Source: Nitrospirota bacterium (GTDB lineage Bacteria; Nitrospirota; Thermodesulfovibrionia; Thermodesulfovibrionales; Dissulfurispiraceae). Taken from it: DNA of 64,000 nucleotides. Positions 44,356 to 62,924 of this stretch are shown piece after piece. A program made the position numbers and the translations under genes. The stretch lies in assembly GCA_040758355.1 (NCBI GenBank), contig JBFLWF010000012.1, positions 1-64,000 on the forward strand. Reading direction: 5' to 3'. A model generated the notes under the pieces. The model ran no database searches and was not told the origin of the DNA. It was given only the letters and a program-made list of their open reading frames with translations. Positions within the stretch are counted from its first letter, which is position 1, and each line of letters opens with the position of its first letter.

Positions 44356-44655
44356 CTATAACTCCTTCCCGGCATTCGCAGTAATTGTTATCTTCTGGAA
44401 CCATAAAATCCCTTTCAAAGGTGACAGCATTCCTTTTAAAGTATTTTGTATTAATGTCTTTGCAAAGTCTTTTTTTATGTCTATCTCTCCATTTTCGGTA
44501 TAAATACGAAGCTCATCGTATTCGATACAGATGGTTACATTCCTTGGGTTATAGCCCAGGGACCTCGCAATTGCACACAGGACGTTTGCAATATAATTCT
44601 GTGTAAAGTCATTAAGGGGAACTACACGATTATTTACCAGAAGGCTCGTTTTCAA
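44356..44655 (-). CDS. Hypothetical protein (99 aa), resembles small MobB C-terminal-type domains
   Basis: LVNNRVVPLNDFTQNYI..GMLSPLKG; co-oriented and overlapping within the operon. Confidence 0.6.
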   Translation of the reverse strand: MKTSLLVNNRVVPLNDFTQNYIANVLCAIARSLGYNPRNVTICIEYDELRIYTENGEIDIKKDFAKTLIQNTLKGMLSPLKGILWFQKITITANAGKEL

Positions 44656-45259
44656 TTGTGTTTTGCGTTCTTGAAATTATTAAAGCTGTTATTCCCGCAC
44701 CTGCAGAATAGAATTTACTACCTTGTTCGAAATTTTTAATCTCCTTTGCAAGTTCGTCTATCCAATTCAGATGACTGCCGAGAAATTCCATTTGTTCCTC
44801 AATGTCTCCATTAATGCATAAAAACGCCATATACTCCATCTCAAGTGCTATGTGGTCTGGCATGGATGAATATTTATCCGGTATGACGATGTCGCGAGCC
44901 TGATAGCGCTTGATCATGTCCATCGCAGGGTCTCCCATCAGATAGCCTTTCTCTCCCGCCATAGGCAGCCTGCATTCGGGATCGCTCGACCATCTCTTAT
45001 AAACGCTTTCAACAGGAACGATATAAGGCGGTAACGGGCCCTCAAATAGCCTTCTGTATTCATCTTTAAGAATATTATATACATCACCGCTTACTAAAAA
45101 CCCCGAAAGGCAGGATGTATCAAGATCGAGTGCAGAGAATACTTCTTTGAAATAGTCGAGGAGTCTGCCTGACGCGACATCATCGGCAAACTCCTCTGTG
45201 GGTTCCTTGAAAAACTCACTTAATTGAGCGTATAGGTTTGCCAGGAATACTTTATTCAA
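44630..45259 (-). CDS. TorD/DmsD family chaperone
   Basis: YRRLF, PVESVY, PDHIALEMEYM, HL.W. Confidence 0.88.
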   Translation of the reverse strand: MNKVFLANLYAQLSEFFKEPTEEFADDVASGRLLDYFKEVFSALDLDTSCLSGFLVSGDVYNILKDEYRRLFEGPLPPYIVPVESVYKRWSSDPECRLPMAGEKGYLMGDPAMDMIKRYQARDIVIPDKYSSMPDHIALEMEYMAFLCINGDIEEQMEFLGSHLNWIDELAKEIKNFEQGSKFYSAGAGITALIISRTQNTIENEPSGK

Positions 45260-45794
45260 GCTTTAATCGCTCCAGATAAATGGTAGACGGCTTTGTTCCA
45301 AACTTATTTATATCACGAAACCACCGTCCATCTGACTTTGCTTTCGCAATGAGATCGTCGGACTTCCCGAAACTCAATGCATGTCCCGGGCACTTGGTAA
45401 CACATGCAGGTTTTTCATCCCTCGCAAGCCTGTGTGCGCAATATGTGCATTTGTCAGCAACCATTTTATCCTCATCAAACCCCATGGCTCCGTAAGGACA
45501 CGCCCATGAACAATAACGGCACCCAATACATTTGCTTTTGTCTATAAGCACAACGCCGTCTCCTTCCCTTTTATAAATCGCTCCGGTAGGGCATGCCTGT
45601 TTGCAAGCAGGCTTTCCGCAATGCATGCACGGCATTGAAACAAAGTAGAGCTTATTGCCTCCTTGCGGATTCACCCATATTAACTTGGTTCTGTATCTGC
45701 CTTCCCCTATGCCATTTTCAAGTTTGCACGCAGTCTCGCATGATTTGCATCCAATGCATCTTTCTAAATCAACCATTATCGTATATCGACTCAT
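45252..45794 (-). CDS. 4x[4Fe-4S] electron-transfer subunit (DmsB/PsrB/NrfC family)
   Basis: CIGCKSCETAC, CMHCGKPAC..ACP, CIGCRYCSWACP, CTYC...PACVTKCP. Confidence 0.93.
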   Translation of the reverse strand: MSRYTIMVDLERCIGCKSCETACKLENGIGEGRYRTKLIWVNPQGGNKLYFVSMPCMHCGKPACKQACPTGAIYKREGDGVVLIDKSKCIGCRYCSWACPYGAMGFDEDKMVADKCTYCAHRLARDEKPACVTKCPGHALSFGKSDDLIAKAKSDGRWFRDINKFGTKPSTIYLERLKLE

Positions 45795-45809
45795 TTTCCG
45801 CCTCCTTTG

Positions 45810-48206
45810 CTATGCCTTTGTTACTTTGCATATCAGCGCTTTAAAATTTATCTGATCGGAAACAGGACACCTCTTGTTCTTATCAACAATAAAGTTTAAC
45901 GATTTCCACTGGGTAAACGGCTGTTTTTCGGAATATGTGTTCGGCACGAAAACAGTGTCTTTCCTGATACCCTCATAAACCCATGCCTTTGCAAATACAT
46001 ACCCCTTCAGTCCCTCTACCTTTACCTTATCGCCGTTCTGAATTCCTATTTCTATCGCCTTTTCAGGATGTATCATGCAGTACTGGTCGGGCGTCTGCTC
46101 GCAGAGATTCCAGAGCCAGTGGCTGCCGTCGCCAAAGTGTGCCGCGGATGGCCTGCCTGATGTAAGATACATGTCAAAGCCCGACATCTCGGGCTTCTCG
46201 GGATATTTGATCTTTACCCGCCGCGCCCTCATGTTGCCTACAGCCACTATGCCTTTCATCAGAGAGGTAATGCCCACCGACGAATCGTCATCAAGATATT
46301 CAAGATAAGGAAGACCGTCCTTCATCCCGATCTCAGGGTCAACATAAAATTCAGGCAGGGGACTCAATCCCTGAGCCTTATACATTTTTTCCAAATCCTC
46401 AGTCCATATCTCAATCTTTCCTGAGGGTCTCGGGAACTGGCCTTTCTTGCCGGGCACTCCGTGCTTCTCGGTATAAAGAGTGCCTATCTCTGGAGCGTCC
46501 GGAGTCGGAAGCGGTCCTCTCAACGCGCCATCCTTCTTAGCAAAAAATCTCTCGGGCGAAAAACCTGTCTTCTTAGCCATCGCCCTTTGTAAAACCACAG
46601 GGTCTTTGTATTCGTCCTTAAATATATCTCCCCACCCCATCTTCTTGCCGAGTTCGATAAATATCCATCTTTCGGGTTTTGCCTGATGCAGCGGCTGGAT
46701 GACCTGAGGTACAAATACGTTTCTCCTCTCATCGGAAACAGGAGCAACCCCTCCTGATTCGGCCCATGGAGACACAGGAAGAATATAGTCGAAATAGAAT
46801 GTCTCTATGCTCGGAAACATATTGTAGTACACGGAGACCTCAAGGTTATCCAGCGCCGTCATTACCCTTTCGATGTCTCCCCATTGTACGAGCGGATTGC
46901 AGCATGCCATGAATGCCTTTATGGGATAAGGCTTCCCTGTGATCATCGGCTCAACCCATGCGATAGGAGACCTTCCGAGCCTCTGTTTTTTTGGTTTTAC
47001 TTCCTTATCGGCAGGCACGGAAATGCTTCCCATTGGCGTTGCGCCTGTATTTCCGCAGCCGTATCCCATTGAAGGCTTTCCGAAATGACCTGTTATGGCG
47101 GCAAGCATAAAGAACGCCCTGTGGGTCAGATGGCCGTTTGTGTGGTGGCTCAAGCCGGCGTTGCCCATGATTATCGCCTTTTCAGTCTTTGCGTATTCCT
47201 CCGCAAGCTCTTTAATCGTCTTTGCAGAAATTCCCGTAATTTTCTCAGCCCATTCGGGTGTGTATTTTTTCTCGATAAGAAACGCCTTGAGTTTATCAAA
47301 GCCAAGCACCTTATTATTTATGAAGTCCTGATTTTGCAGGTTCTTCTCTATGATGTGATACATCATAGAAAGCGCCAACGCCATATCTGTCGAGGGCTTT
47401 ATCGGGAGCCATACATCTGCCCTGCTTGCAGCCTCGGACATCCTCGGGTCGACCACAATAAATTTTGTCTTCCTTTTTATCCTTTCATCATTCGTTGCTC
47501 CGAACGCTACAGGTTTACATGCAGCCATATTACTGCCGACAAACATGTACCAGTCTGCGCCGCCGAAATCTTCTCTCGTGTATGTCCACGGCGGGTTGTT
47601 ATGTCCTAAAATGGAATTTGAAGCGGTCGTTCCCGCAAGATTACAAAAAGGGCCGGTTCCTTCGCGATGCGGAGTGCCGTAAAGTTTCTCGAACGTCCCT
47701 GTCAGCCCCGCTCTTGCCTGGGATTCGCTCCTACCTCCGGTCCACCACGCAAGCGCCTCGGGGCCGTATTTCTCTTTAACCGCTTTAAGTTTATCTGCAA
47801 TCTCAGTTAATGCCTGCTCCCAGCTTATCTCCTGATATGATTCCGGCTTGCCCCTCGGCCCTATGCGCTTTAAAGGAGCCTTCAGGCGGTATTTGTTATA
47901 CAGCATGTTCACGCTGTTCTGTCCCTTCGGACAGAGCTTGCCGCCTGTTACAGGGTCGTCAGGATTGCCGTAAATATTAATAATCCTCCCTGCCTTTACA
48001 TGCACCTTCATGCTGCATCCCGTCTGACACCATTGACAGCCTGCTGTCACCGCCCTGTCGGGCATAGGCGCTATACCGCTTTCGGCATATGGTTTATGGG
48101 TTTTAAAATTTTCCGTGCCTTTTACACTTAAAGGCATTCCCGCAACTGCCGCAGCGGCGCCTGCAACCTTTAGAAATGTCCTTCTTGAAAGCCTTAGCTT
48201 ATCCAT
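45810..48206 (-). CDS. Tat-exported Mo/W-bisPGD oxidoreductase catalytic subunit (Psr/Phs-like; substrate unknown)
   Basis: SRRTFLK Tat motif, CQWCQTGC...LCPKG FS0, ISWEQAL, VDPR, probable Cys ligand GPFCN; AAGGAGG RBS before ATG 48206. Confidence 0.9.
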   Translation of the reverse strand: MDKLRLSRRTFLKVAGAAAAVAGMPLSVKGTENFKTHKPYAESGIAPMPDRAVTAGCQWCQTGCSMKVHVKAGRIINIYGNPDDPVTGGKLCPKGQNSVNMLYNKYRLKAPLKRIGPRGKPESYQEISWEQALTEIADKLKAVKEKYGPEALAWWTGGRSESQARAGLTGTFEKLYGTPHREGTGPFCNLAGTTASNSILGHNNPPWTYTREDFGGADWYMFVGSNMAACKPVAFGATNDERIKRKTKFIVVDPRMSEAASRADVWLPIKPSTDMALALSMMYHIIEKNLQNQDFINNKVLGFDKLKAFLIEKKYTPEWAEKITGISAKTIKELAEEYAKTEKAIIMGNAGLSHHTNGHLTHRAFFMLAAITGHFGKPSMGYGCGNTGATPMGSISVPADKEVKPKKQRLGRSPIAWVEPMITGKPYPIKAFMACCNPLVQWGDIERVMTALDNLEVSVYYNMFPSIETFYFDYILPVSPWAESGGVAPVSDERRNVFVPQVIQPLHQAKPERWIFIELGKKMGWGDIFKDEYKDPVVLQRAMAKKTGFSPERFFAKKDGALRGPLPTPDAPEIGTLYTEKHGVPGKKGQFPRPSGKIEIWTEDLEKMYKAQGLSPLPEFYVDPEIGMKDGLPYLEYLDDDSSVGITSLMKGIVAVGNMRARRVKIKYPEKPEMSGFDMYLTSGRPSAAHFGDGSHWLWNLCEQTPDQYCMIHPEKAIEIGIQNGDKVKVEGLKGYVFAKAWVYEGIRKDTVFVPNTYSEKQPFTQWKSLNFIVDKNKRCPVSDQINFKALICKVTKA

Positions 48207-48234
48207 ATCAAACCCTCCTTCTATCCGTATCAAA

Positions 48235-49011
48235 TTAATAAAGCCCGAACGACTTCGAGATAACAGATAGGTCTCCCGTGAGCTTTGCCTTCAGCGCATT
48301 AAGCTTGCCGAGTCTCTTCGTAAACATCTCCTTTACCTTTTCCCTGTGCCGTTTGTCGATGCTCTCTGTTATAAGCTCCCTTCTCTTTTCGGCCCTTTCC
48401 ATGCTATTTATTTCAAGTAAACAACTCTCTATTTTTTTAAGCTCCTCCGACTCCAATGCAACACAGTATTTAAAATTTTCAAAATAGGATGCCGTAACCT
48501 TCAATTCATGCCTGTCAATGTCCTTGAGCCTGCGAATATTTGCTTTCCTGTCTTTATTCACCACAACGCCCCTGTCAATGCACTCATAACCACAGTTGCG
48601 GTACATACTCAGACTGCCGTTCTCCATAATGAGCGACTCAGGGAAGAGACGGCAGTGAATAGGCCTGATATCATAAACCGAACACTTGCCGTCTTTGAGA
48701 AATCTGCATGGGAATATCAGCCCTACAGAAGGGATAAGGAGGCACGTGCCCGGTATCCTGTTCCATATCACCTCGCAGTAGTCCTTAAAAAAATCCCCAC
48801 CCCTCATCGAGAGATGCTTGCACAGCCTGATAATATCTCCCAGTGTCAGTTCAAGGGGATTGCCCTTGTCAGTGCAGCACCGAACACATCCGTCAATACA
48901 TCGAAAGCCTCTGTTGTCCGGGGACAGTCCCGAATCAGAGCCTGCTCCGTTTAATACGGGGGCTTCGCCCGTAATTCTGGGACAGTCCCCTTTTCTGTCT
49001 TTAACACCCAC
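48235..49011 (-). CDS. YkgJ-family (CxxCxxCC) Fe-S/zinc-binding protein; start uncertain (GTG 49011)
   Basis: FRCIDGCVRCC, PCRFL..GKCSVY..RPIHCRLFP. Confidence 0.8.
   Translation of the reverse strand: MGVKDRKGDCPRITGEAPVLNGAGSDSGLSPDNRGFRCIDGCVRCCTDKGNPLELTLGDIIRLCKHLSMRGGDFFKDYCEVIWNRIPGTCLLIPSVGLIFPCRFLKDGKCSVYDIRPIHCRLFPESLIMENGSLSMYRNCGYECIDRGVVVNKDRKANIRRLKDIDRHELKVTASYFENFKYCVALESEELKKIESCLLEINSMERAEKRRELITESIDKRHREKVKEMFTKRLGKLNALKAKLTGDLSVISKSFGLY
48920..48990. repeat. GGGACAGTCCC-type palindromic element with an internal hairpin
   Basis: Two GGGACAGTCCC cores (48921, 48979) enclosing TACGGG-ggcttcg-CCCGTA; same core as 55003-55039. Confidence 0.75.
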
Positions 49012-49936
49012 AGGCCTCTTCCACAGAGATGTTGAGCTGTGATGTTGCCTTCTGTCCGTTTTCATCTTCAACAGTTAAGACAACCGCATAAACGCCCTGT
49101 GTAAATGTATGCTGGGCCTCTTTACCTGTAGCGCTTTCCCCATCTCCGAAGTCCCATCTTATGGATTTGATCCTGCCGCTTCCGCCTCCAATAATGGCCT
49201 TGAATTTAACTGTATAGGGTGCATCGCCTCTCCTGTTTTTTACGCCGCCGATCTTTACCTTAAGCGGTCCTCCAGAAGCCAGTTCTTCTTCAACAAGCAG
49301 ACTGCCGCCAAGACGCTTTGAAGCCTTCATCAATGAGTCCCTTGTTTTGTCCTGCATCTGCGCTGGAGCAGCAATGCTTCCGCCTATCTTCTGGACTGCC
49401 TGCTGTCCGTCATCCACCCTCAACTTGTTTACTCCCATATCCACAACTACCCTTCCCAAAATGGACCAGATGGTGAACTCTTTCTTTGCGTCATCATATT
49501 TCAGTGCAAATTCAGCGCCCTGAGTCATAATGGGAACATTGCCTGCACTGATCTCAAAGTGAGTAAACAGGTGTTCGGGAACCTGAGCCTTTGCAAATAT
49601 GCGGCCCTTTTCCAGTGTAAGGAGCGTCTTTTCCATGTTCCTGTCGCTCTCAAAGATAACTCCCTTCAGGATAATGGATGTTTCAGGATAAATTTCTACA
49701 ATGCCGCCGTTTGACCATGTAAGGACAACGGCAGAATTAGCGCCTGTGGCAATCTTTTCATCCCTCTGAACAATGTCGCCCTCTTTCAACGGAATACCGT
49801 TTTTTGTTACCGTACCATCTACCCTTGTAGCCCTCACTACAGATGCATCCTCGGCATAGGCGCTAACAACGCCGACAAGCAAGATGCAATAAAACAAAAC
49901 ACTTAACACCAACACATTTCTGAAAAGTCTGAACAC
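49001..49936 (-). CDS. Exported FecR-like plus PKD domain protein ending in CGC
   Basis: Signal peptide; FecR-like GD.V....IATG.NS.V.L; PKD motif WDFGDG...HTF..G.Y.V.LTV.D. Confidence 0.75.
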   Translation of the reverse strand: MFRLFRNVLVLSVLFYCILLVGVVSAYAEDASVVRATRVDGTVTKNGIPLKEGDIVQRDEKIATGANSAVVLTWSNGGIVEIYPETSIILKGVIFESDRNMEKTLLTLEKGRIFAKAQVPEHLFTHFEISAGNVPIMTQGAEFALKYDDAKKEFTIWSILGRVVVDMGVNKLRVDDGQQAVQKIGGSIAAPAQMQDKTRDSLMKASKRLGGSLLVEEELASGGPLKVKIGGVKNRRGDAPYTVKFKAIIGGGSGRIKSIRWDFGDGESATGKEAQHTFTQGVYAVVLTVEDENGQKATSQLNISVEEACGC

Positions 49937-50368: not shown

Positions 50369-52141
50369 CTAAAATTCAAACTCGGCTCCAAGAACAACCT
50401 TTGAGGCAGGGTCGGCCTTTTGTCCATTCGCCTGCTGGTAAACTGCCGAAGGAACAAAATACCCAGCTTCTGTAAAACCCCTCAGACGTTTATAGATCGG
50501 GAAATTGAGATCGAGATCTATGCCCCATCCAATATCCCTTGTCTTTTCGGTTGTGAGAGAAGCCCCGCTGCTCCAGTCTATTCCGGGCACGGGACCCCTT
50601 CCTTTATAAACGATCTCTGTTGTCCAGTATCTTGCGAGGGCAATATTCGTTTGAAGGCTCTTAACAGGCTCGAACCCTGCAATTGCCCTGATAAATGTAA
50701 CATTCGCGAGGTTGCTATCCCATAGATAATACCCAGCCCTCAAATCCTCGCTGAATATGTTTCCGAATTTCCTTCTGTCCTTGCATAGAAATAACCCTCT
50801 GAAATTTTTATAATCGCCGTTAACAGGATCGTCAACCTTGTTTCCCGATCCCCTCCCGAACTCCAGACCTGCCGAAAACTTCTTTAAAAAGCCCACATTG
50901 CCGAAATGATAATCGCCCCTCAGCAGAAAGGCATAGGCAGATAAATCCCTTGTATTGGTATACTGACCTGTAAGATAGATTAAGTCAGCCATGTATGAGA
51001 TTCTTTCTCCTTTCCCTGACAGTGCGATGCCGAGCCAGAGAGGTTCAAAACTTCCGTCGCGCGGCGTAGTGTTTAAATTAAAATCCTTATCGAGGTTTAA
51101 ATCAGGGTCGCCAAACTTACCCCTGTCAAATACCTTGAGGACATATGGCTCTATGTTCAAATCCCTCCTGGGCTTTATATTAAAGCTGATGAGAAAGCCA
51201 TCCAGCTTGTTTGCAATGCCGAGGGCAGCGCTCCTGTCTCCGGCAGGCCCTGCTCCGAAGTTGTTGTAATTCCTGAATCCTCCTGCAACAGCTATATATG
51301 TCAAATTCCCTGTGATCCTTCCCATAGGTGTCTGGCCAAAGGGATAAGAGATCTTGAATGCATCCACAGGACCTTCGAGCACTACACCATCATTTCCTGC
51401 CATGACATTTTGCCTGCCTGCCTTCGCAATAAAATCGCCCGTATACTGGACGTAGAGCTCCCTCACTAATGCTGAGTTTACCGTAAGAAACTCTGACCAT
51501 CTGTCGAGGGTGCCTTCGCTGTCTTCCTTCCAGTCAAACACAAAGTTCCCTTTGTCAAAAAGCACTACCCCTGTTATTGGGCCGTAGTCCGCCTCGATTT
51601 TCAACTGAAACCTCTGATCAAAATAGGTAGTGTTGTCGTATGTCCATGCCTGTCTCGGATTGTTGAGATTGATATTATCCTTTACATTCAGCCGCAGTTT
51701 GTATTTCCCTGAAAATGCAAATTTCGTCTTCTCTTTTGCCTCCTCTTCTTCTTTTGCCGTCCTGGCATCTAATTTTCTTTTCCACGTCTCAAGTTCTGTA
51801 AGTCTTCTTCTTGCTTCTTCATCCCTCGCTTTCTGGATATCCGTTTCAACCACCGGCTCGCCCCATTCATCTGCTGCTTCCTTTTTATCCTTTGCTTCGG
51901 CAACTGCAGGCTTTGAAGGAATAGCTGCCGGAGCAGGCTTTTTTTCCTGCAGGAGCCTATTCACCAGTGACTCGAGGTCAGAGACGCGCTTCTCCAGTTT
52001 TTGAATATAGCCCTTTGTCTCATCATCAAGAGGGGAGGCTGCGTATGCCGATAAAGATGATGCTATCAGAGAAAAGACCATAAAGGTTGTTATTAAAATG
52101 TATCTGACAAAAATTATCGTTTTTTTCTTTTCAATGCTCAT
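50369..52141 (-). CDS. Outer-membrane beta-barrel protein with N-terminal coiled coil (alginate-export/porin-like)
   Basis: Signal peptide, coiled coil, alternating beta-strand pattern, C-terminal aromatic (GAEFEF). Confidence 0.75.
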   Translation of the reverse strand: MSIEKKKTIIFVRYILITTFMVFSLIASSLSAYAASPLDDETKGYIQKLEKRVSDLESLVNRLLQEKKPAPAAIPSKPAVAEAKDKKEAADEWGEPVVETDIQKARDEEARRRLTELETWKRKLDARTAKEEEEAKEKTKFAFSGKYKLRLNVKDNINLNNPRQAWTYDNTTYFDQRFQLKIEADYGPITGVVLFDKGNFVFDWKEDSEGTLDRWSEFLTVNSALVRELYVQYTGDFIAKAGRQNVMAGNDGVVLEGPVDAFKISYPFGQTPMGRITGNLTYIAVAGGFRNYNNFGAGPAGDRSAALGIANKLDGFLISFNIKPRRDLNIEPYVLKVFDRGKFGDPDLNLDKDFNLNTTPRDGSFEPLWLGIALSGKGERISYMADLIYLTGQYTNTRDLSAYAFLLRGDYHFGNVGFLKKFSAGLEFGRGSGNKVDDPVNGDYKNFRGLFLCKDRRKFGNIFSEDLRAGYYLWDSNLANVTFIRAIAGFEPVKSLQTNIALARYWTTEIVYKGRGPVPGIDWSSGASLTTEKTRDIGWGIDLDLNFPIYKRLRGFTEAGYFVPSAVYQQANGQKADPASKVVLGAEFEF

Positions 52142-53081
52142 GACGTTTTTCGCTTCCGACTCCATAGAATATGGGGATTTCCTTAACCTTTCCATCACGC
52201 CCCATTACTTTATCCACCTTCCTCTCGCGGGTGTGGCACTCTATGCAGACGAGGCGTTTTAAAAGGGGTTTAAAGGTATAGGGATTTTCTGGATGTACAG
52301 CAGTAAAGAAGGGTATCCCGCCTTCATCTTTTCTCTGTACAAATAATTTCAACGGGCCATAAGGTTGTATTCTGGATTCTCTTATTATCTTTGCCTTTTC
52401 AATGCACTCCTCCATACCCGTTTCACCGACAATTGCCTTTGAAAAACACTCCATTACAGCCTTTTCGTCAACAACAGCCTCTTTAAGTCCTTCCTTAGGC
52501 GCATATGCCTCATGACAGGTTGCACAGGTCATCTTTTTGAGTTCCTTAACTTTCACTACCCTGAAGGTCTGAGGAAATATATCGTTTATAATATTTCTAT
52601 TCAGCCATTTGAGGTCTTCTTTGCTCCTCGTCTTGTTATACTCTGTCTCCGACTTTTTAGTCTCGCTGCCGAAAGCAACAATGCCCTTTAATTGGGAGAC
52701 AAGATTTTCATCCATCAGGAGTCTGTTTATCTCATTAACAACGATGGTCTTTTCATCGCTGTTCAATACTCCGGGCTTAAAACCACTTATGACCATTTTT
52801 GCTTCTGCACTTAATGGCAGAATCTTGAGTTTAGCCTGAAGATTCCTTAAAAAGTCAGGCCAATCCCTTATTTCATCCATGGAAAAATCCGCAGTCCTCT
52901 GGCTCATGGCCTCAAGATGAATGGCATGGGGATGAGGATATTTCTTACCCTGTTTTGTTACAATGCCTCCATCCGTCCACTTTATGGCCTCTGACCATGC
53001 TGTAGCGGCAATCAACCCGAAAGCCATAATGCCGATTGCTGCAATTGATATTACAAGACGGTTTAAGCGACTGTTTCGCAT
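52131..53081 (-). CDS. Periplasmic c-type cytochrome (2 CxxCH)
   Basis: Signal peptide; CATCH and CIECH motifs. Confidence 0.8.
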   Translation of the reverse strand: MRNSRLNRLVISIAAIGIMAFGLIAATAWSEAIKWTDGGIVTKQGKKYPHPHAIHLEAMSQRTADFSMDEIRDWPDFLRNLQAKLKILPLSAEAKMVISGFKPGVLNSDEKTIVVNEINRLLMDENLVSQLKGIVAFGSETKKSETEYNKTRSKEDLKWLNRNIINDIFPQTFRVVKVKELKKMTCATCHEAYAPKEGLKEAVVDEKAVMECFSKAIVGETGMEECIEKAKIIRESRIQPYGPLKLFVQRKDEGGIPFFTAVHPENPYTFKPLLKRLVCIECHTRERKVDKVMGRDGKVKEIPIFYGVGSEKRHEH

Positions 53082-53779
53082 ATCTCCTCTCCTTCCTTAC
53101 AGACCTTTGCATAGAGTTCTGAAACATATTCTTCTTCGCTCTTCATAAACTCTATTATGAAATTGGCAACGGCCTTATAAAATCCGTATTCCGCCCTTTC
53201 GATGATCTTTTCACAGCATCGATACACCCACTTTAAAAGGTGCTCTTCCAAAAACATCTTCTGGAACTCGACACATTTCTGTAGCGATTCAATCCCGGTC
53301 TTTTCCCATGACTCCCTCTCTATCCCGCAAAGAAAGGCCATAAACTCCAATTCCATTCCAAGGTGATCCGGCATCTCGGTGCACTCTTTTAGAATATCCG
53401 CTCCCGCCTTTTCATAAAATTGGCCTACGCTTATGGTAATCCTGCCTCCGAGTTTCTTATCTTTGTCGAGATACACGGCCTCGTGCGGCAACAAATCCGA
53501 CGGAAGAACAAACAAAGCGGTATGATCCGCCTCCAATTCTTCCTTAAGGTTCGGCATCTTCTCGGCCTGCCTTACGAATTCGAACAGTCCCGCGGGATAA
53601 GACTCTATACCTTCGCCGTCTTCGTAATTGTCCTGAAAGACCGACAATATGCTTCCGTCTCTTATCATCGCGATCAAAGAATCCGAAGGCGGCTTAAGAC
53701 AGAGACCCGATAAAAACCTGTATGTCCTTTCCCTTTCTCCAGCTGTTATGGCTTCAAATTCGCTCACTTTAACCTCCAT
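53063..53779 (-). CDS. TorD/DmsD family chaperone
   Basis: PHEAVY, MPDHLGMELEFM, FLEEHLLKW. Confidence 0.9.
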   Translation of the reverse strand: MEVKVSEFEAITAGERERTYRFLSGLCLKPPSDSLIAMIRDGSILSVFQDNYEDGEGIESYPAGLFEFVRQAEKMPNLKEELEADHTALFVLPSDLLPHEAVYLDKDKKLGGRITISVGQFYEKAGADILKECTEMPDHLGMELEFMAFLCGIERESWEKTGIESLQKCVEFQKMFLEEHLLKWVYRCCEKIIERAEYGFYKAVANFIIEFMKSEEEYVSELYAKVCKEGEEICETVA

Positions 53780-53781
53780 CT

Positions 53782-54969
53782 CTATGTCGATGCTTTAATA
53801 AACCCGTTTTGAATAAACGCCATCTGTTTTTTATGCCTGCTCACACATAAAGGGCATATATCCCCGCCGATATCCTGAGATTCGGTATCTCCGGCCGTTT
53901 GAACAAATTCGAACCTGCATATGGAGCAGGTCTTTCTTTCGCTTTCAAAAAGCGTGATCTCCGCGTTCTCCATCAGATAATTCAGCCTTGCCGTCTCTTT
54001 TATTTTTATAGCATTAGGCATGCAGGTCTCCACGCAGACCTTGCAGTTAACACACAATGCCGGTTTAAAGCTCAAATGAAATTTTCCGGCCTCCTGCCTT
54101 TGGGTTAAAGCACCGGCAGGACAGAGCGTAGCACAGACACCGCAGCCGGTGCATCCGGAAGATACCTCAAGCTCCGCAAGTATTGCGCCGGTTGACGGCA
54201 CATGCGTTTCTTTGGAAGACGAAAACCCCTCAAGCGCCTGCATCAGGAGATTCCTTTTAAAATTTTCGGGTTTCTTAGAGATAGCTCCGATAAATGTTTC
54301 TTTCTGCTCTCCTTCGATTCCGACATCTGGAATGGATGTTACTGCCACCTCAGCCGCCTTTGCCCTGAGCGCGGAGAATAATTCCCTCCTCGAAACCGCT
54401 TTCTCCGGCATTTTCGATAAAGGCTGAAGCGATATGTTCTTTATAACAAGCCTGTCCTTTTCTATGCCCGCCGTCTCATAAATAATCGAAACGTTATTAA
54501 TAACCCTGTCGATATTGGTGGAAGCCTTTGAATTCGGACACGCCGCGCATTCGGGGCGCGATATCTCTATATTCAAAACGCCCGCCTTTATAGGCTCAAG
54601 AAGCGTAGCCTCGCTGAGACGTCCGAGGCACGGCACCATAAGGTCGGCGCTGTCGTCTCCACGCTGACATGAAATACGGAATACTTTTGCTTTCTTAGAC
54701 TTTTCTCTTATTTCAGCAACGATCTTTTCATCAGCCGTTTCCTTCATCCTGAAAACGCCGTTTGGACACGCGGAAACGCATACTCCGCAATCTACGCAGC
54801 CTGCTTTTATCTCCGCTCCGTCCTCCGAAATGCCGACAGCGTCCGCAGGGCACGAATCGGCGCAGATCGAACAATCCGATTTCGGCGTCCTGAAACGCGA
54901 ACATAAAGACGCTTCTATCAGGATATGATGATTATTGATAATTTTATCCGCTACTTCTGCAACTCCCAT
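53782..54969 (-). CDS. Multi-[4Fe-4S] ferredoxin-like protein
   Basis: CSICADSCP, CVDCGVCVSACP, CTGCGVCATLCP, CVNCKVCVETC; GAGGTG RBS before ATG 54969. Confidence 0.85.
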   Translation of the reverse strand: MGVAEVADKIINNHHILIEASLCSRFRTPKSDCSICADSCPADAVGISEDGAEIKAGCVDCGVCVSACPNGVFRMKETADEKIVAEIREKSKKAKVFRISCQRGDDSADLMVPCLGRLSEATLLEPIKAGVLNIEISRPECAACPNSKASTNIDRVINNVSIIYETAGIEKDRLVIKNISLQPLSKMPEKAVSRRELFSALRAKAAEVAVTSIPDVGIEGEQKETFIGAISKKPENFKRNLLMQALEGFSSSKETHVPSTGAILAELEVSSGCTGCGVCATLCPAGALTQRQEAGKFHLSFKPALCVNCKVCVETCMPNAIKIKETARLNYLMENAEITLFESERKTCSICRFEFVQTAGDTESQDIGGDICPLCVSRHKKQMAFIQNGFIKAST

Positions 54970-55002
54970 GCTTGCACCTCTCAAAATTAGTTTTCGGTTA
55001 TC

Positions 55003-55039
55003 GGGGACAGTCCCTGTCTTAATAACAGGGACTGTCCCC
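55003..55039. repeat. 15-bp perfect inverted repeat of GGGACAGTCCC type
   Basis: GGGGACAGTCCCTGT-cttaata-ACAGGGACTGTCCCC, intergenic. Confidence 0.85.
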
Positions 55040-55057
55040 TTTGCCTTAAAACCCTTA

Positions 55058-55684
55058 CTACTTCGTATACAGCGTCGACGGCTCCGTGCTTGTCTTCGCA
55101 CCGATGAATCCCAGAGAAACCCTCTCTGCCCGTTTCTCCCTGATGAGTTTTGTAAGGGAGTCTATCTCGCCGAAGAACCTTGTCCTCGCAATACATGTAT
55201 CAACGCAGGCAGGACGGAGTCCTTTCTCTAACCTATGCACGCAGAGCGTGCATTTTTCCATTACCTTTGCCTCGGCATTGAACTGCGGATGTCCGTAAGG
55301 GCACGCCCACGCGCAATACCTGCAGCCGATGCATTTGTCCTTGTTGATAAGAACTATCCCGTCCTCTTTCCTCTTTGTGATTGCCCCGACCGGGCAAGCC
55401 GCCATGCAGGCCGGCTTCCCTCAATGCATACAGGGCATCGGCACAAAGTAGACCCTTAAATCTGGCTTTTCCTTCTGATTTTTAAATTCTCCGACTTCGA
55501 TCTCCATTACCCGGTTGTAATCCACGCCTACGGGAGTATTGTTCTCTCCCTTGCACGCCATGGTGCAGGCATGGCAACCGACGCAGTATTCGAGATCGAC
55601 CCAGAGCGTATACTGCTTAGGACCCGGTTTTTTAAAACTGGCCTCTAAGACTTCATCCGGTACAAAAGTCCCTAATTCCGACAT
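55058..55684 (-). CDS. 4x[4Fe-4S] subunit (DmsB/TtrB/NrfC family) with an in-frame UGA, probable selenoprotein
   Basis: ORFs 55421-55684 and 55058-55405 are in one frame; TGA (55421-55423) gives PCMH-U-GKPAC..ACP, against PCMH-C-GKPAC in the paralog at 45252. Confidence 0.8.
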
Positions 55685-55697
55685 ACCGTCCTCCTTT

Positions 55698-58694
55698 TTA
55701 TAACCTTTCGACCCTTAGAGGCGTACCGAAACTCTGCGTACCACCTCCTATGGGGTCAACCAGCACCCTATTTTTCAAAACAGGGTCGGCCATATAAAGC
55801 GGGTTTATATGGAAACCTGCGCCTACTCTTTCATCATGAGGCTGCTCTTTGCCGTTCATATGCCACTTGCCTTTCGGCGAGCCGGCTCCGAACCTTCCGT
55901 AAGACTGGCACACAGAGAACAACCCCGGCCTTATCCTGCTTGTAACCCTGATCTGGAATTTAAACCAGCCGTTGCCAAGATAGTTTGGATAAAACTGTTT
56001 TATGAGCTTGCGGAAATTTTTGTACATATCCGTCTCTATTTGTCCGCTGGAAGGAGACTTTGCCTTGACCCAGTCGCCTGTCTTAACGCCCAGTCTCTCG
56101 GCATCCGCAGGGTTTATCTCCGCATAGTTCTGAGGCTTGATGGATGCGAGCCACAGGTTGTTCATTGTCCTCGACTGGGTATGGAAGGCTTCCTTATTCG
56201 TGTGAAGCTGCATCGGATATTCATTCCAGATCGCTGGATCAAGGGGCTGCTCTTTGCAGTCAACGATAGTCCTGTACATCGGCAGACCATCCATATACTC
56301 GCCAGTCATAGCGTTTTTATATGTGGAGACCTTTTCGAGGAAAGCAAAGAGTACGCGCACCTGCCTGCCTCCGGGGAATGATGTGTACTCGCCCGAGGAA
56401 TAGTCTTTTGTGTATTGATGTTTTGGCGACGGGTTCTGGAATTTCCCGCCCAGCTTCACAAGACTGCTTTTCGGGTCCAATCCATCCTTAAAGTCTTTGT
56501 GCTTATAATATTCGTTCCAGAACTGCCATGAATTGTTGATATCCACGCCCGGTCCGCCTCCGTCTTTCCCGAATGCAGGAAGACCGCATTCTTTTGAGAT
56601 CATTATGAGAATATCATCAGCCATTTTTGTGTCAGGTCTTATGGGCTTATAATCATGGGTCTTTGGATCGAAAGATCCTACTACAGGCTGTCTTAATGCC
56701 CATACCTGTGTTTTTACCGGCGGGTATGTCTTAAATCCTCCGAGTCTTTCGAGGTATTCGGTATCAGGAAGCACATAGTCGCAAAGCTGGGTCGTCTCTC
56801 CCATATATGCATCTATGGAGAATGTCAAAGGCATTGCCTTCAAATCCAAAAGCGCCTCGATAGTCTCCTGATTATAAGGCATTGTATAGGCAGGGTCGTT
56901 GTAGTAATTGAGATATGCCTTATTCTTGTAAGGATACCCCATTCTCACATTGGAGAAGAAGTTCGGAGTCACGCTTCTCGGAGCGCTATAACCGGAGTAC
57001 CACGGCCTTGAAGCAGTCGGCTTCTTTCCCTGATATGCAGCCTTTGCCGTGTCGGCCCGGATGCCTGAAGGCTTCCGTTTTTCCTTAGCCTTTACATCGC
57101 CTTTATAAGCCGCATGCCCTGAGATAAAACCGCCTTTCCTGTCGATATTGTCAACGAGCATGTTTATGATGCAGAGCGCCTGCCCGTTATACCAGCCGTT
57201 TGACTGCTGGACAGGGCCGCGGAACATCTCGATTGCAGGGCGTTTTGCGGATGTGAATTCCTTTGCGATGTGGGCGATCGTTCCAGCCGGTATATCGCAT
57301 ACGGCATCGCACTCTGCGAGGGTTTTCTCCTGAGCCCTTTCTCTGAGCATCCTGAATACAGTCTTGTACTCAACGCCGTTTAAGACATAGCTTGCATCGA
57401 GGTCTGCAAACCCGTCCGCATCCTGAAACATCTTAGGCTGTCCGCCGACAAGCACCACAAAGTCGCTCTGGCCGAGGCCTGCGTCTTTTCCTGTAAGGTA
57501 CTTCCTCGGCTTGGTCGTGCTGACAAGGTATGTCATGTCCGTCCAGTTCCTGTAGCCCTTTTTCTTTGCGACCTTTTCATTTGGTATGGTAAGGTATTCC
57601 TTTTTATACCCGTTGTTCTCTATCATCCATCTGATCATACCCAACAGGAAATACGCGTCCGTTGTCGGCTTTATAGGAACCCATTCGCCAACGCCGTTAT
57701 GCGTTGCCTTTGCAGCGGCATTCGTAAACCTCGGGTCAACCACGACATGCTTGAAATTCTTTGCATCCGGATTAAGCCTCTTTCCGAATTTCTGCAAATA
57801 CCGGGCCCTCGTCTGCATGGGATAGTCTGCCTGAGTGACATTAGAGCCCATGCTTATCAAGTAATCGCAGTATTCATAATCGCAATAGCTCCCTATTTCG
57901 TAGGGAGGTAAATTCAAATTTGCCTCTACAACAGTGTAGAAGGTGCCGGCGCAACGGCTGCAATGGTTGAGCATATGCGGAACGCCGCAGGCGTCAACGA
58001 CAAACCTCGGCGTCAGAGGCGACTGCTCATTCCTGCCATGCGCCCAGACAAACTGGTTCCTTTTCGGTCCCCATCCGCCTGGGGGAGCTTCGTCCATATA
58101 GGCCGAATCCTCAGGTCCTATGGGCTTATCGTTGCTCAGTATGGATTTCAATCCTTCAACATTACGGTTCTCTTCTCCGGGAACATTCTTGAAGAGATAA
58201 CCGCCGTGGCATATCTCCTTAATAGCCTGATCCCACGAAATGGTCTTCCATTTACCTGATCCCCTCGGCCCAACTCTTTTAAGCGGATGCTGGAGTCTGA
58301 AGGGGCTGTAAAGGGCAAAGATGCCTGCCTGCCCTTTCGGACAGAGCGAACCTACGTCCTTTCCTGTAGGCCCTGCATCGAGGTCTGACTCCTCGACTAT
58401 ATCGCCCTTAGCAGTATAGTCGTAAGTGTTCGGATGGTAAGGATTGCCCGTAAGCCTCGCAAGCTCTCCGTTTACTACCTTTGCCTGAATGCCGCACCCT
58501 CCGTGGCACATAAGGCAGACGCTTCTTACTATCTTCATCTCTCCGTCAACCGGGTCCGGCTGTGAGCCGGACTTGCCTATCTGCTTTTTCCACTCTGCTG
58601 CCTCAACATCTTTGAAATTCGATGCTACCGCGGCAGCAGTAATAGTAGCTGCAGAAAGCTTTAGAAAAGACCTTCTTTTCATCTCGGTATTCAT
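55698..58694 (-). CDS. Tat-exported Mo/W-bisPGD oxidoreductase catalytic subunit (TtrA/SrdA/ArrA-related; substrate unknown)
   Basis: KRRSFLK Tat motif, CLMCHGGC...GNPYHP...LCPKG, ISWDQA, LPDTEYLER; 998 aa. Confidence 0.9.
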   Translation of the reverse strand: MNTEMKRRSFLKLSAATITAAAVASNFKDVEAAEWKKQIGKSGSQPDPVDGEMKIVRSVCLMCHGGCGIQAKVVNGELARLTGNPYHPNTYDYTAKGDIVEESDLDAGPTGKDVGSLCPKGQAGIFALYSPFRLQHPLKRVGPRGSGKWKTISWDQAIKEICHGGYLFKNVPGEENRNVEGLKSILSNDKPIGPEDSAYMDEAPPGGWGPKRNQFVWAHGRNEQSPLTPRFVVDACGVPHMLNHCSRCAGTFYTVVEANLNLPPYEIGSYCDYEYCDYLISMGSNVTQADYPMQTRARYLQKFGKRLNPDAKNFKHVVVDPRFTNAAAKATHNGVGEWVPIKPTTDAYFLLGMIRWMIENNGYKKEYLTIPNEKVAKKKGYRNWTDMTYLVSTTKPRKYLTGKDAGLGQSDFVVLVGGQPKMFQDADGFADLDASYVLNGVEYKTVFRMLRERAQEKTLAECDAVCDIPAGTIAHIAKEFTSAKRPAIEMFRGPVQQSNGWYNGQALCIINMLVDNIDRKGGFISGHAAYKGDVKAKEKRKPSGIRADTAKAAYQGKKPTASRPWYSGYSAPRSVTPNFFSNVRMGYPYKNKAYLNYYNDPAYTMPYNQETIEALLDLKAMPLTFSIDAYMGETTQLCDYVLPDTEYLERLGGFKTYPPVKTQVWALRQPVVGSFDPKTHDYKPIRPDTKMADDILIMISKECGLPAFGKDGGGPGVDINNSWQFWNEYYKHKDFKDGLDPKSSLVKLGGKFQNPSPKHQYTKDYSSGEYTSFPGGRQVRVLFAFLEKVSTYKNAMTGEYMDGLPMYRTIVDCKEQPLDPAIWNEYPMQLHTNKEAFHTQSRTMNNLWLASIKPQNYAEINPADAERLGVKTGDWVKAKSPSSGQIETDMYKNFRKLIKQFYPNYLGNGWFKFQIRVTSRIRPGLFSVCQSYGRFGAGSPKGKWHMNGKEQPHDERVGAGFHINPLYMADPVLKNRVLVDPIGGGTQSFGTPLRVERL

Positions 58695-58730: not shown

Positions 58731-59951
58731 TCAAGCCTTCTTCCTGCTCTCAAACCTTAGTTCACCTGTATAAACCGGGATGGCAAACTTCAGCAACAGT
58801 GTATAAAACAAAGCTCCAAGCGCCCATATCCCTATAGTAATAAAGCCTTCTGCCATCGTAGGCCAGTATTCATATATCTCCCCGAGGGTATCGGGAATAA
58901 ATCCGGGGATAATCAGACCCAGACCCTTTTCTATGTATACCCCAAGGATTATTAATACAGCGCCTATGTTTAAGGTTTTAAAATTCTCGCGGGTCTTCGG
59001 TATCAGGAAGATAATAAAGGCTATGACATTAAATATAAGGGCTGTCCACATCCACGGCACCAATAGTTTTTTCCCATGCAGTCCGAAATATAGATATTCC
59101 AATGGAGCCTTGTGAATGCTGTTAGAATAAAACTCCTTAAATACCTCTGCGCCGAACAGGAAAAGATTAATGCCCATGGCATACGCTACCAATTCAGCAA
59201 TTTTAAAGATTGCCCTATTTTCTATCTCCACTCTTGTGAGCTTTCTGATGACCTGAAACAGAATCAACATAATGGCCGGGCCTGAACAAAAGGCAGATGC
59301 AAGAAACCTCGGCGCCAGTATGGATGCGTTCCAGAAAGGTCTGGATGGGAATCCATTATATAGAAATGCCGTTACTGTATGTATGCTCACCGCCCATGGG
59401 ATAGAAAGCAATATCAATGGCCAGATTAACGATAGCTTGTATTCCTTCCCGATGGAGAGCCTGTACAGGGCGTAAAGGACAAGAGCAAGGTTTATAAAGA
59501 GATACCCGTTCAAGACTATTACATCCCATGCGAGGAGGGAGGATGGGAAATTCATCATTCCCACAACAGGCAGGAGATGCCAAACCTTTTGCGGCTGCCC
59601 TAAATCAACCATTATGAAGAGTATGCACATGGTAATTGCTGTTATAGCAACCATTTCGCCAAAGAGCACAATCTCCTTAATGGGTTTAAAATTATATAAA
59701 TATGCTGGAACTACCAGAAGGACCGCTGCCGCAGCTACACCAACAAGAAAGGTGAAATTTGCTATGTAAAACCCCCACGATACCTGATCCCTCATAGCGG
59801 TTGTGATCAAACCCTTGTCGATCTGCTGGATATACGCGCTAATTCCAAAAACAATCAGTATACAAAGAAAAGCAACCCATGCATAATACTTTTTACCTCC
59901 CCTCGTTATCTGTAGAAGCGCCTTAAAAAAGTTTTTTATCATGTTATACAT
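58731..59951 (-). CDS. NrfD/PsrC/DsrP family membrane quinol-interacting subunit
   Basis: VSWGFYIANFTFLVGVAAAA, DLGQP, SIHTVTAF, APRFLASAF; about 10 TM segments. Confidence 0.9.
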   Translation of the reverse strand: MYNMIKNFFKALLQITRGGKKYYAWVAFLCILIVFGISAYIQQIDKGLITTAMRDQVSWGFYIANFTFLVGVAAAAVLLVVPAYLYNFKPIKEIVLFGEMVAITAITMCILFIMVDLGQPQKVWHLLPVVGMMNFPSSLLAWDVIVLNGYLFINLALVLYALYRLSIGKEYKLSLIWPLILLSIPWAVSIHTVTAFLYNGFPSRPFWNASILAPRFLASAFCSGPAIMLILFQVIRKLTRVEIENRAIFKIAELVAYAMGINLFLFGAEVFKEFYSNSIHKAPLEYLYFGLHGKKLLVPWMWTALIFNVIAFIIFLIPKTRENFKTLNIGAVLIILGVYIEKGLGLIIPGFIPDTLGEIYEYWPTMAEGFITIGIWALGALFYTLLLKFAIPVYTGELRFESRKKA

Positions 59952-59966: not shown

Positions 59967-60899
59967 TTAAACTTGCCAGCCAGTAAAGAAGTAATAAAAT
60001 TTTGGCTCAGTATTTATGTCCTCTTTCAACCTGAAGACCCTCTTATTTTCAATAAGGTACCTTATCTCACTTTTAGGGTCTAAAAGATTGCCGAACTTCC
60101 TTGCTCCTACCGGACATACCTCAACGCATGCAGGATATTTGCCTGCCCTTGTCCTCTGTATGCAGAAGGTGCATTTTTCCACAACACCTTTATAGCGCGG
60201 ACGATTCCCAAGATAATGGGTCTCGGGATTTAATTCATTTTGCGGGATATTGGGTTTTGCCCAGTTGAAGCGCCTTGCGCCATAAGGGCATGCAGCCATA
60301 CAGTATCTGCAGCCGATGCACCAGTTATAATCGACAACTATAATGCCGTCGGGCTCTTTCCATGTTGCCTGTGTAGGGCACGCCTTTACGCATGGTGGGT
60401 TCTCGCACTGCTGACACTGTACAGGCATATAAAAGAAGCCCTTCTCGGGGACCTCTTTTGGGTTATAGTATTTCTCGGAATTTTCGAGATCAATCCATTT
60501 ATCGCCCTTCTTGAATCGCAGTACAGAAATCCAGTGGACCTGAGGAGTTCGTGATTGGTTGTTCTCTGCTACACATGCATACACGCAGCGCCTGCAGCCG
60601 ATGCATCTGGAAAGATCAAGGCCATATCCAAACTTTACTCCGGGCCTTGGCTTTGTTGCACTGATATGGATATCCTTCTTCCATTCAAGGGATGCCTCCT
60701 TTTCCAGTTTCTCGATTACCCTTTTGATCTCCTCATCCGTCATCTCCTTGAAGTGCTTCTGGGAAAAAGCATCCCAGTTGAACGCATCTGCAGTTTGCAG
60801 CGGAAGGGCTGATGCAGCAAGACCTGCTGCTGCACCCTTCAAGAATGTCCTTCTATCAAGCCTGAGTCCCATCGGGTTGTTCCTTATTTTCTTTGACAT
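59967..60899 (-). CDS. Tat-exported 4Fe-4S subunit (NrfC/DsrO-like)
   Basis: DRRTFLK, CIGCRRCVYAC, CQQCENPPCVKACP, CIGCRYCMAACP, KCTFC. Confidence 0.92.
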   Translation of the reverse strand: MSKKIRNNPMGLRLDRRTFLKGAAAGLAASALPLQTADAFNWDAFSQKHFKEMTDEEIKRVIEKLEKEASLEWKKDIHISATKPRPGVKFGYGLDLSRCIGCRRCVYACVAENNQSRTPQVHWISVLRFKKGDKWIDLENSEKYYNPKEVPEKGFFYMPVQCQQCENPPCVKACPTQATWKEPDGIIVVDYNWCIGCRYCMAACPYGARRFNWAKPNIPQNELNPETHYLGNRPRYKGVVEKCTFCIQRTRAGKYPACVEVCPVGARKFGNLLDPKSEIRYLIENKRVFRLKEDINTEPKFYYFFTGWQV

Positions 60900-60912: not shown

Positions 60913-61422
60913 CTACTTTAATTTAATGTCCGCTGGTCTCGTTGGCGGCTGTTTTGGTTCAAACGGTTTAAACCTCGGCTGATGCGGGTCATGGCAGGTT
61001 ACGCAGATACGATAAACCTTTTCTCCGTCCCACATTCCTGTGGTCTTGCCGTGAATACCTGCCTTCCAGTCCCTGATCACAGTTCCATGACACTGGCCGC
61101 AGAGGATGTATGATTTCTCATAATCTATCAACTGTCCGTTGGCTAATTTCAATTTGTCCCCCTCATGACAGTTGAAACACCACTGCTGATCCTCTGCATG
61201 TTTGAGCACTATGTTGGAGTGATTCCCCACCAGTTTTCTCTTTGCTTTGTTAACAGGCAAGTACCTGTGGCACTTGGAACAGGGATAATTCTCAGGAGGC
61301 ATGGGCTTGGTTATAATCAGCTTTGGAACATCTTCTTCTGCATTCCCTGAATTAAAGAAGAATGCCGAAACAAAAAACAATACCGAGAAAATCACTGCTA
61401 ACTTGCTTCTTCTCTTCATCAC
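60913..61422 (-). CDS. Tetraheme c-type cytochrome
   Basis: CSKCH, CFNCH, CGQCH, CVTCH; signal peptide. Confidence 0.9.
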   Translation of the reverse strand: MMKRRSKLAVIFSVLFFVSAFFFNSGNAEEDVPKLIITKPMPPENYPCSKCHRYLPVNKAKRKLVGNHSNIVLKHAEDQQWCFNCHEGDKLKLANGQLIDYEKSYILCGQCHGTVIRDWKAGIHGKTTGMWDGEKVYRICVTCHDPHQPRFKPFEPKQPPTRPADIKLK

Positions 61423-61559: not shown

Positions 61560-62924
61560 CTAAATACGTTGCAGGAATTTAACTTTATCCGGGCCATGCG
61601 GTTCTCTATCTTTTAATGATACCCAGACAGTTTGATGATCTCTTATGGACTTCCTCTTTACAGGCAGAGTAAAGATAAATCTGCTGCCCTTGCCATGTTC
61701 GCTCTCCACATGGATCGTTCCTCCATGCATTTCAACGAGCCTCTTTACAATGGAAAGGCCGAGACCTGTACCCTCGATCTTCTCCATTCGTTCTGACCGA
61801 AGCTGTTCATAGGCATTGAATATGCTCTCATGGTGCTCTGGCGCAATCCCCTTTCCTGTGTCCCAGACGATGACCTCTACCGAATCGTTTATCTCCCCTG
61901 CCTTTATTCCTGCCTTGCCTCCGTCAGGGGTGTATTTTATGGCATTCTCCAGAAGATTAATGATTATCTCTCTAAAACGCATCTCATCTCCGCAGCAATA
62001 TGTGTCCTTGATGTCTTCTGTTTCAAGCGATATATCGATATTTTTATCCCTTGCCTTTAAATAGAGCATCCCTACTGTGTCATGGATTGCATCGGAAATC
62101 CTGAATGGCTTTATTGATAACTTAATATTTCCGGTTTCTATCTTTGAAAGTTCCATTATTTCGTTGAGGAGTGCATTTATATGTTCTATGGCCTCGTCTA
62201 TCCTTTTCCGGCATAGCTCTCTTTCTTCGGCAGCCGTGCTATAAGAGGTATAAAGCAGCGCTGAAAATCCCCTGACTGCATTAAGCGGCGTTTTTATTTC
62301 ATGCGAGAGGTTGGCGATAAAGTTAGACTGTGCAATATACAACCGTTTTATTTCTTCCTGTTTTCTAAAAAGCCTGTCAGATAGGTATGTAACAAACTAG
62401 GCTGTAAGTATAAGCGTGCTGATGAACACAGTCCCATAGATGGAAATAACCTCTATTCCTGCAAAGAACATCGGCCTATCTTTGAATATGCCGAAATGTG
62501 GCAAAATGCCGATATGCTTTAGCCCTAAAACGGTACTCTGAAGGATTACAGCAAAGGCTGTAAATCTATATGCCCATTTCTTCGGAAGGATAATGCCTGT
62601 TATCACGACATGGAAGATATAGTAATAAAGAAACGGGCTGTCGCAACTGCCCGAAAAATAGATTGCAGCGCTCAGTGCGATATAATCAAGGCCGATCTGT
62701 AAAACAGCGTCACCGAAAAGGTTTTCCGAAGGAAGTCTTAATCTACTTTGAAAATATAAATTATAGGCAACAACAGGAACGAGGATTATATAAACCGGGA
62801 ATATAGGGAAATCGAGTTTAAATATCCCTCTTAATGAGTGTGCTGCCACGAATACAGCCGCACACGCCAGCCATCTGAGGTTTATGAGCCATTTAAGATG
62901 TTCCCTTAACTCAGAATTATTCAT
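61560..62924 (-). pseudogene. Membrane sensor histidine kinase interrupted by an in-frame TAG (62397-62399)
   Basis: The TM ORF and the HisKA/HATPase ORF ([30 protein letters not shown]) share one frame: [27 protein letters not shown]. Confidence 0.8.

Follow-up and report, generated by a model that had tools for sequence, protein, structure and literature searches.

A predicted selenocysteine ligand in the four-cluster iron-sulfur subunit of a TtrA-like molybdenum enzyme from a Nitrospirota bacterium

Iron-sulfur proteins of the PsrB/NrfC (2vpw_B), ArrB (6cz7_B), NarH (1q16_B), DmsB and TtrB types have in common a fold, four groups of cysteines and an operon place after the gene of a Tat-exported Mo subunit. 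The protein considered here, hereafter the B subunit, shares all these properties but differs from them in that one of the predicted ligands of its cluster FS3 is UGA-coded. The presence of Sec instead of Cys in an Fe-S motif also occurs in catalogued selenoproteins whose Sec is predicted to be an Fe-S ligand, namely VhuD/MvhD/FrhD, the RnfB-like PRK07118 (UxxC), PrdC form 1 (CxxU) and CopZ-like (2Fe-2S) proteins (PMC13188914), and the available text of PMC12013277 contains VhuD-like, PRK07118 and HgcB sequences with U; direct Sec–ligand interactions are still unconfirmed for most families (PMC13188914, 2026). Sec as an Fe-S ligand is accordingly not new in itself, but the catalogued proteins belong to other folds and families, none being a four-cluster protein of the DmsB/TtrB/NrfC type and none being listed under PF13247. 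The 119-family selenoprotein table of 2026 (PMC13188914, Table 1) holds neither a four-cluster nor a TtrA-like entry, a term search of PMC12013277 (main text and four supplements, as available) returned no 4Fe-4S or DmsB entry, and full-text searches of the openly available literature yielded no description of a DmsB/TtrB/NrfC protein that contains Sec. The B subunit apparently represents an uncatalogued selenoprotein family, with its partner, the A subunit, as a second candidate family.

With the Sec-containing FdhA and FwdB the present system has in common its Mo/W-bisPGD nature and the SelB/SECIS type of recoding. In those enzymes, however, Sec ligates the Mo/W of the catalytic subunit, whereas here it would reside in the wire subunit and, among relatives, in A as well, probably at a second-sphere site. 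As far as the available text of Wells et al. goes (PMC10100899, PMC7331816), the TtrA-type lineage is listed with Cys only, and Sec is listed for Fwd and Fdh only. The A subunit resembles TtrA in its length of about 1000 aa, its Tat signal and a likely Cys ligand of Mo, but differs from it by an additional Cys/Sec located three residues ahead of that ligand and by the presence of a polyferredoxin, cytochromes and a porin in the operon. The MOLY cluster (MolyABC), which the available text of PMC12998232 links to sulfur disproportionation, shows the same A-B-TorD order, predicted export and hosts among Desulfobacterota and Nitrospirota; the likeness is one of description only, MolyA being treated there beside PhsA and separately from TtrA, and a second Mo-enzyme unit close to the B operon fits that description better than the B operon does.

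If the reading proposed below is correct, a very widespread class of respiratory enzymes, for which Sec is listed in no role other than that of Mo/W ligand in Fdh and Fwd, would gain one and probably two selenoprotein families.

The B gene, its in-frame TGA and its orthologues

The sequence analysed (the window) comprises 64,000 nucleotides, positions 1 to 64,000 of contig JBFLWF010000012.1 of the Nitrospirota bacterium assembly GCA_040758355.1; its relevant features are collected in Table 1. The B frame spans 208 residues with a single internal stop, a TGA at codon 88. Re-reading of the sequence reproduced both the minus-strand codons given around this TGA in an earlier note on the same DNA and the full-length read-through product with U88 as the sixteenth ligand, 15 Cys and U88 falling into four groups (34/37/40/44, 85/88/93/97, 118/121/124/128 and 145/148/160/164). 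The paralog to which that note had drawn attention indeed carries Cys at the equivalent site and is 48% identical to B, and Cys is found at site 88 in all 12 other four-cluster matches detected by tblastn in the same genome.

Table 1. Coordinates of the B gene, its operon and related elements in the window
Feature	Coordinates	Strand	Basis
B subunit, four-cluster [4Fe-4S] protein, DmsB/PsrB/NrfC type, 208 aa with predicted U88	55058..55684	-	Pfam Fer4_11, AF2 model, Foldseek
In-frame TGA, codon 88, aligned with NarH Cys187 (FS3 ligand)	55421..55423	-	orthologue and NarH alignment
Shine-Dalgarno-like AGGAGG preceding B start codon	55690..55695	-	sequence
Candidate SECIS, 6-bp stem, 5-nt loop beginning GG, 29 nt past UGA, -10.6 kcal/mol	55381..55397	-	synonymous conservation
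Alternative hairpin, weaker candidate, beginning directly after UGA	55392..55420	-	pairing counts, covariation
A subunit, 998-aa Tat-exported Mo/W-bisPGD enzyme, TtrA-like	55698..58694	-	profile matches
A codon 245, TGC (Cys) in window, motif H-C/U-S-R-C248	57960..57962	-	orthologue alignment
A-SECIS remnant, 8-bp stem intact, first loop base C (G in 12/12 A-TGA loci)	57923..57942	-	sequence comparison
Small multihaem cytochrome c, four CxxCH motifs	60913..61422	-	sequence, domain match
DsrO-like four-cluster protein, Cys at site equivalent to 88	59967..60899	-	profile match, alignment
NrfD/DsrP-type membrane anchor	58731..59951	-	DsrP model, over cut-off
Polyferredoxin, conserved downstream of B	53782..55101	-	domain match, orthologous loci
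TorD/DmsD-type chaperone	53063..53779	-	profile match
Cytochrome c, two CxxCH motifs	52131..53081	-	sequence; conserved in orthologous loci
Outer-membrane beta-barrel, alginate-export family	50369..52198	-	domain match, orthologous loci
FecR + PKD protein ending CGC, operon-conserved	49001..49936	-	domain match, orthologous loci
Cys-type paralog of B, in second Mo-enzyme unit	45252..45794	-	alignment, profile match
Second Mo-enzyme unit (A 45810-48233, chaperone 44630-45259)	44630-48233		profile matches

The Fer4_11 domain (PF13247), the four Cys groups and the fold place B in the four-cluster class (PF13247; PsrB/DmsB/NrfC). The NCBIfam models of DmsB, TtrB and NrfC are all matched under their cut-offs (184.4 bits against a cut-off of 214.1 for the DmsB equivalog, 149.4 against 416 for that of TtrB), and none of the 19 NCBIfam matches of B is a selenoprotein model. 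The AF2 model, computed with Cys at 88, has a pLDDT of 81.6 and a pTM of 0.74, its best Foldseek matches being ArrB (6cz7_B) and PsrB (2vpw_B) with TM 0.67–0.68. B residues 80–172 align without gaps with residues 179–271 of E. coli NarH, so that B 85/88/93/128 correspond to NarH 184/187/192/227, the residues tabulated as FS3 ligands in the available text of PMC5338063; because of this correspondence U88 is, by homology, very probably a ligand of FS3. A Sec inserted without binding iron, for instance one engaged in a selenylsulfide that leaves a [3Fe-4S] or otherwise altered cluster, would have a parallel in HdrA U197, which in the Hdr-Vhu-Fwd structure of M. maripaludis appears to form a selenosulfur bond instead of being a cluster ligand (PMC13518236, as far as its available text goes). 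This is nevertheless very improbable for B, where site 88 belongs to the 16 invariant Cys columns and aligns without gaps with an FS3 ligand of NarH, and where a spare Cys for pairing is absent.

In GenBank the B gene is split into two fragments of 87 and 115 aa, and public databases likewise keep the TGA forms as one piece of 87 aa and another of 115 aa, for the most part under the names of hypothetical or dicluster-domain proteins; the N-terminal piece was exactly 87 aa in all 14 clusters recovered. This splitting in the public records makes the enzyme appear broken in genomes of groundwater Nitrospirota and Desulfobacterota, an annotation that the present reading corrects. That the two annotated pieces are genuine, being made separately with a restart at Met94 and complementing each other, has a negligible probability: Met94 is present in 15 of the 22 TGA forms, but the remaining seven have Q, K or R at this position, codons 89–93 are conserved in frame, a Shine-Dalgarno sequence is absent ahead of Met94 and two FS3 ligands would be lost.

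The orthologues of B were defined as tblastn matches with at least 53% identity covering position 88, a set that includes the window's own gene and, after one locus without site 88 was dropped, amounts to 121 loci with 101 distinct coding sequences. Among the latter, codon 88 is TGA in 22 and a Cys codon in 79 (67 TGC, 12 TGT); a stop other than TGA at codon 88, or a TGA at any of the other 15 Cys positions, was found in none of the 101. The TGA is thus not peculiar to this assembly, a point on which the earlier note had made its reading depend, being shared by 21 other distinct genes with identities down to about 72%, whose named carriers are Nitrospirota and Desulfobacterota MAGs. The U/C label at site 88 changes nine times on the best tree, at least three of these changes being forced by well-supported branches (shuffled mean, 20.3); since this quick IQ-TREE (100 rows, site 88 masked) is unrooted, gain and loss are not distinguishable in it.

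Comparison of the window's gene with the 14 other full-length TGA orthologues gave dN/dS values of 0.044 for codons 1–87 and 0.071 for codons 89–208; purifying selection acts on the gene both before and after the UGA. Furthermore, a contig from a second study covers positions 55318–55562 without a single difference in a contig-level comparison, one of the sources compared being possibly that of the window itself. The alternative of a single-base nonsense mutation or error entertained in the earlier note, or of a pseudogene, could draw on the in-frame TAG of another gene in the window and on the lack of the B gene in four other genomes of the genus, but the recurrence of the TGA, the selection continuing past it and the identical second contig leave it with almost no probability.

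The other gene said to be broken is indeed interrupted, but by a TAG (62397–62399), not by a TGA. It encodes a sensor histidine kinase (61560–62924) whose orthologue in a genome of the same genus (G003, 66%) is intact, whereas the match in G251 has one TAA; the kinase TAG is probably a true nonsense change.

The distribution of the B gene is patchy, the gene being present in none of the four other genomes of the genus and in five of 400 others in a phylum sample, and a phylum-wide search around G057, covering 301 genomes at E <= 1e-48, retrieved no locus beyond the two already known. The gene, not found in the rest of the genus (G001–G004), is yet 96–97% identical in another genus (G022, G251), a distribution that suggests recent transfer or repeated loss.

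Selenocysteine machinery and candidate SECIS elements

The search for selABCD proposed in the earlier note gave a positive result, since the genome (99% complete) contains selA, selB and selD, all over curated cut-offs and the last with a TGA of its own, as well as a single tRNA with a UCA anticodon that has the canonical tRNA-Sec (selC) shape, with an acceptor stem of 8 bp, a G as discriminator and a long variable arm. In a survey of 50 of the 57 orthologue-bearing genomes (those of L062–064 and L070–073 being left out), at least one of selA and selB was found in all 12 genomes with TGA-88 and both in nine, whereas neither was found in 11 of the 38 genomes with Cys-88 (Fisher p 0.046, a value to be read with the reservation that kin are not independent and assemblies are incomplete). 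All seven genomes checked among those with a TGA in the A subunit also possess selA or selB.

The UGA could alternatively be decoded as Cys by a tRNA of the SelC*/tRNA-ReC type, or be subject to leaky read-through, in which case the protein would be an ordinary one. According to the available text of PMC13582414, tRNA-ReC-like tRNAs reading a SECIS-dependent UGA as Cys occur in Desulfobacterota and others, and Cys is what all other homologues have at site 88. On the other hand, the genome contains one UCA tRNA of canonical tRNA-Sec shape and one ordinary tRNA-Cys, and a search of it with RF01852 detected no second Sec-like tRNA, the sole match outside the ARAGORN tRNAs (C71) yielding no tRNA; a SelC*-type tRNA-ReC was thus not found in the window's genome, and decoding as Cys or leaky read-through is very unlikely. 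That TGA-88 is a real, programmed UGA read as Sec appears close to certain.

Other UGA genes with short G-loop hairpins were found in the host genome by a crude scan. From their motifs, we take them to comprise a peroxiredoxin (TxxU), two thioredoxin-fold proteins (UxxC), a rhodanese-like and a UXX-star-like protein, FdhA and SelD. These probable selenoprotein UGAs lie at C17:47896, C9:59395, C29:11909, C22:6204, C1:239960, C3:41978 and C13:52449. Two adjoining paralogs (C4:100510 and C4:102417, plus strand) have an in-frame TGA in a shared P-D-G-U-P motif, with coding-like sequence on both sides, and are likely selenoproteins.

Both hairpins that the earlier note had placed after the UGA, at 55392–55420 and 55381–55397, exist, and the second, with its GGUC-containing loop, is the better SECIS candidate. 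Its loop presumably resembles that of the E. coli fdhF SECIS. The main argument is synonymous conservation: in 15 full-length TGA forms codons 96–102 rank first of 151 seven-codon windows (0.91 vs a mean of 0.54), whereas in 20 full-length Cys forms of similar divergence the same codons rank 81st of 155 (0.55 vs 0.54). Likewise, the exact 15-nt hairpin core is present in 17 of 18 TGA forms vs two of 23 Cys forms (identity at least 78%), and its inner 8-nt element in 19 of 22 vs nine of 78, the hairpin being retained in some Cys forms. Checked by hand, it conforms to the bacterial SECIS model (loop of 3–9 nt, stem of 4–16 bp, G in the first two loop positions, spacing of 16–37 nt, MFE <= -7.5; PMC13188914), its spacing from the UGA exceeding the ~17–22 nt read for four other selenoprotein hairpins of the genome.

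Several results limit the weight of these hairpins. Folding is no better than that of shuffled sequences in either region (54 nt, z -0.67; 29 nt, z -0.64), so that the hairpins alone constitute no evidence and support comes from the orthologues; neither covariation nor compensatory change was found in the hairpin at 55381–55397, whose 6-bp register is broken in the four most divergent TGA forms (L039, L045, L130, L131); and an independent-pairs test had three supported pairs, too few for a significant association between hairpin and UGA. As to the alternative hairpin, 84.7% of its cells are paired, one pair is broken in 11 of 19 sequences, its covariation score was reached by 51 of 500 shuffles and is not significant, and its 5' arm would be inside the ribosome during decoding of the UGA. 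An RNAalifold structure of 19 TGA forms was set aside, being built mostly from invariant columns under amino-acid constraint, and an Rfam gathering scan of the window returned two tRNAs and nothing else.

Taken as a whole, the explanation that the B gene encodes a selenoprotein with U88 in a four-cluster wire subunit is held with high confidence. As in established SelB/SECIS biology, SelB with Sec-tRNA would bind the hairpin and insert Sec to yield the complete 208-aa protein, which, to judge from NarH and PsrB, would hold four [4Fe-4S] clusters; U88 together with C85, C93 and C128 would hold FS3, the third cluster of the wire going from the Mo site to the membrane side. B lacks a signal peptide and is predicted to be exported together with the Tat-bearing A subunit. 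Selenium would tune or protect FS3 and is probably not essential, because the Cys forms are the majority.

A second, predicted Sec/Cys site in the A subunit

TtrA is the best NCBIfam match of the A subunit (E 5e-103), at 345.6 bits against an equivalog cut-off of 1750. Codon 245 of A, TGC in the window, is TGA in 12 loci representing nine distinct sequences, so that in close relatives A would also carry a Sec (U245) next to the Mo site. The A-TGA loci named are L018, L020, L034, L036, L068, L074, L098, L103 and L125.

All four combinations of U and C in A and B exist in nature: among 66 distinct readable loci, both sites are Cys in 51, A is Cys and B Sec in seven, both are Sec in five, and A is Sec and B Cys in three. 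(L018, with Sec at both, is not counted among them, since it duplicates a shorter locus.) The natural Sec and Cys versions of near-identical proteins (e.g. L100 vs L101) make it directly testable how a selenolate ligand affects a [4Fe-4S] cluster held by a protein within an electron-transfer chain.

As in B, synonymous conservation distinguishes the two forms of A, the windows starting at codons 251–253 ranking first to third of 551 in the nine TGA forms, and that at codon 251 ranking 262nd of 536 in 28 Cys forms. The corresponding A-subunit SECIS, an 8-bp stem with a G-initial loop, is present in all 12 A-TGA loci. Since the closest relative of the window (L018, 97% identical in B) has both UGAs, the window's A subunit has most likely reverted from Sec to Cys, and recently.

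The motif H-C-S-R-C of A is aligned by HMMER, in a weak stretch, with H-S-S-V-C of ArrA, whose Cys we take to be the Mo ligand and whose Ser presumably contacts arsenate. By this analogy C248 is likely the Mo ligand of A, and residue 245 probably occupies a second-sphere site and is not itself a Mo ligand; the AF2 model of A (pLDDT 40.1) is too low in confidence for the geometry of C245 and C248. The premise of the earlier note that Sec is normally the Mo ligand of the A subunit, and would be unusual as an Fe-S ligand in B, is therefore to be qualified on two counts: predicted Sec Fe-S ligands have precedents in VhuD/MvhD and the RnfB-like PRK07118, and A itself has a Sec/Cys pair whose Sec is probably away from the Mo ligand. 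The JGI name "anaerobic selenocysteine-containing dehydrogenase" borne by A homologues was rejected as evidence, since it is attached to full-length Cys forms.

A broader reading, to which we lean without strong conviction, is that of an undescribed respiratory Mo enzyme that in some lineages is a double selenoprotein, with B-U88 on a [4Fe-4S] cluster of the wire and A-U245 in a U-x-x-C motif by the metal; unlike in formate dehydrogenases, Cys would be on Mo and Sec would attack or carry the substrate. The window would then display the loss of Sec from A in progress, the G of the SECIS loop having mutated. The conserved C-P-V-G codons ten past the UGA need no more than synonymous changes to become a SECIS loop, and this would account for the repeated switching of one Cys among 16.

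Operon context and predicted function

The operon is ordered cytochrome c, DsrO-like protein, NrfD anchor, A, B, polyferredoxin, TorD chaperone, cytochrome c, porin and FecR-PKD protein, and from A onward it is largely conserved across orthologous loci; no NrfD was found within the flanks examined of proteobacterial loci. By its best match alone, A would fall in the sulfur/arsenic/selenium clade described by Wells et al. The prediction that we somewhat favor is an oxidoreductase of the Ttr/Psr/Arr clade that faces the periplasm and acts on a sulfur compound, a selenium or arsenic oxyanion as substrate being possible but clearly less probable.

In Sedimenticola selenatireducens, a cultured host of the Cys form in whose genome (G077) neither selA nor selB was found, an ArsR-rhodanese fusion (L054:390-1115) lies upstream of the operon. 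The second Mo-enzyme unit of the window consists of a Tat-exported PhsA-like Mo enzyme, a B subunit and a TorD chaperone, without a membrane anchor. The FecR-PKD protein, with its C-G-C end, is possibly a carrier of sulfur or of a metal.
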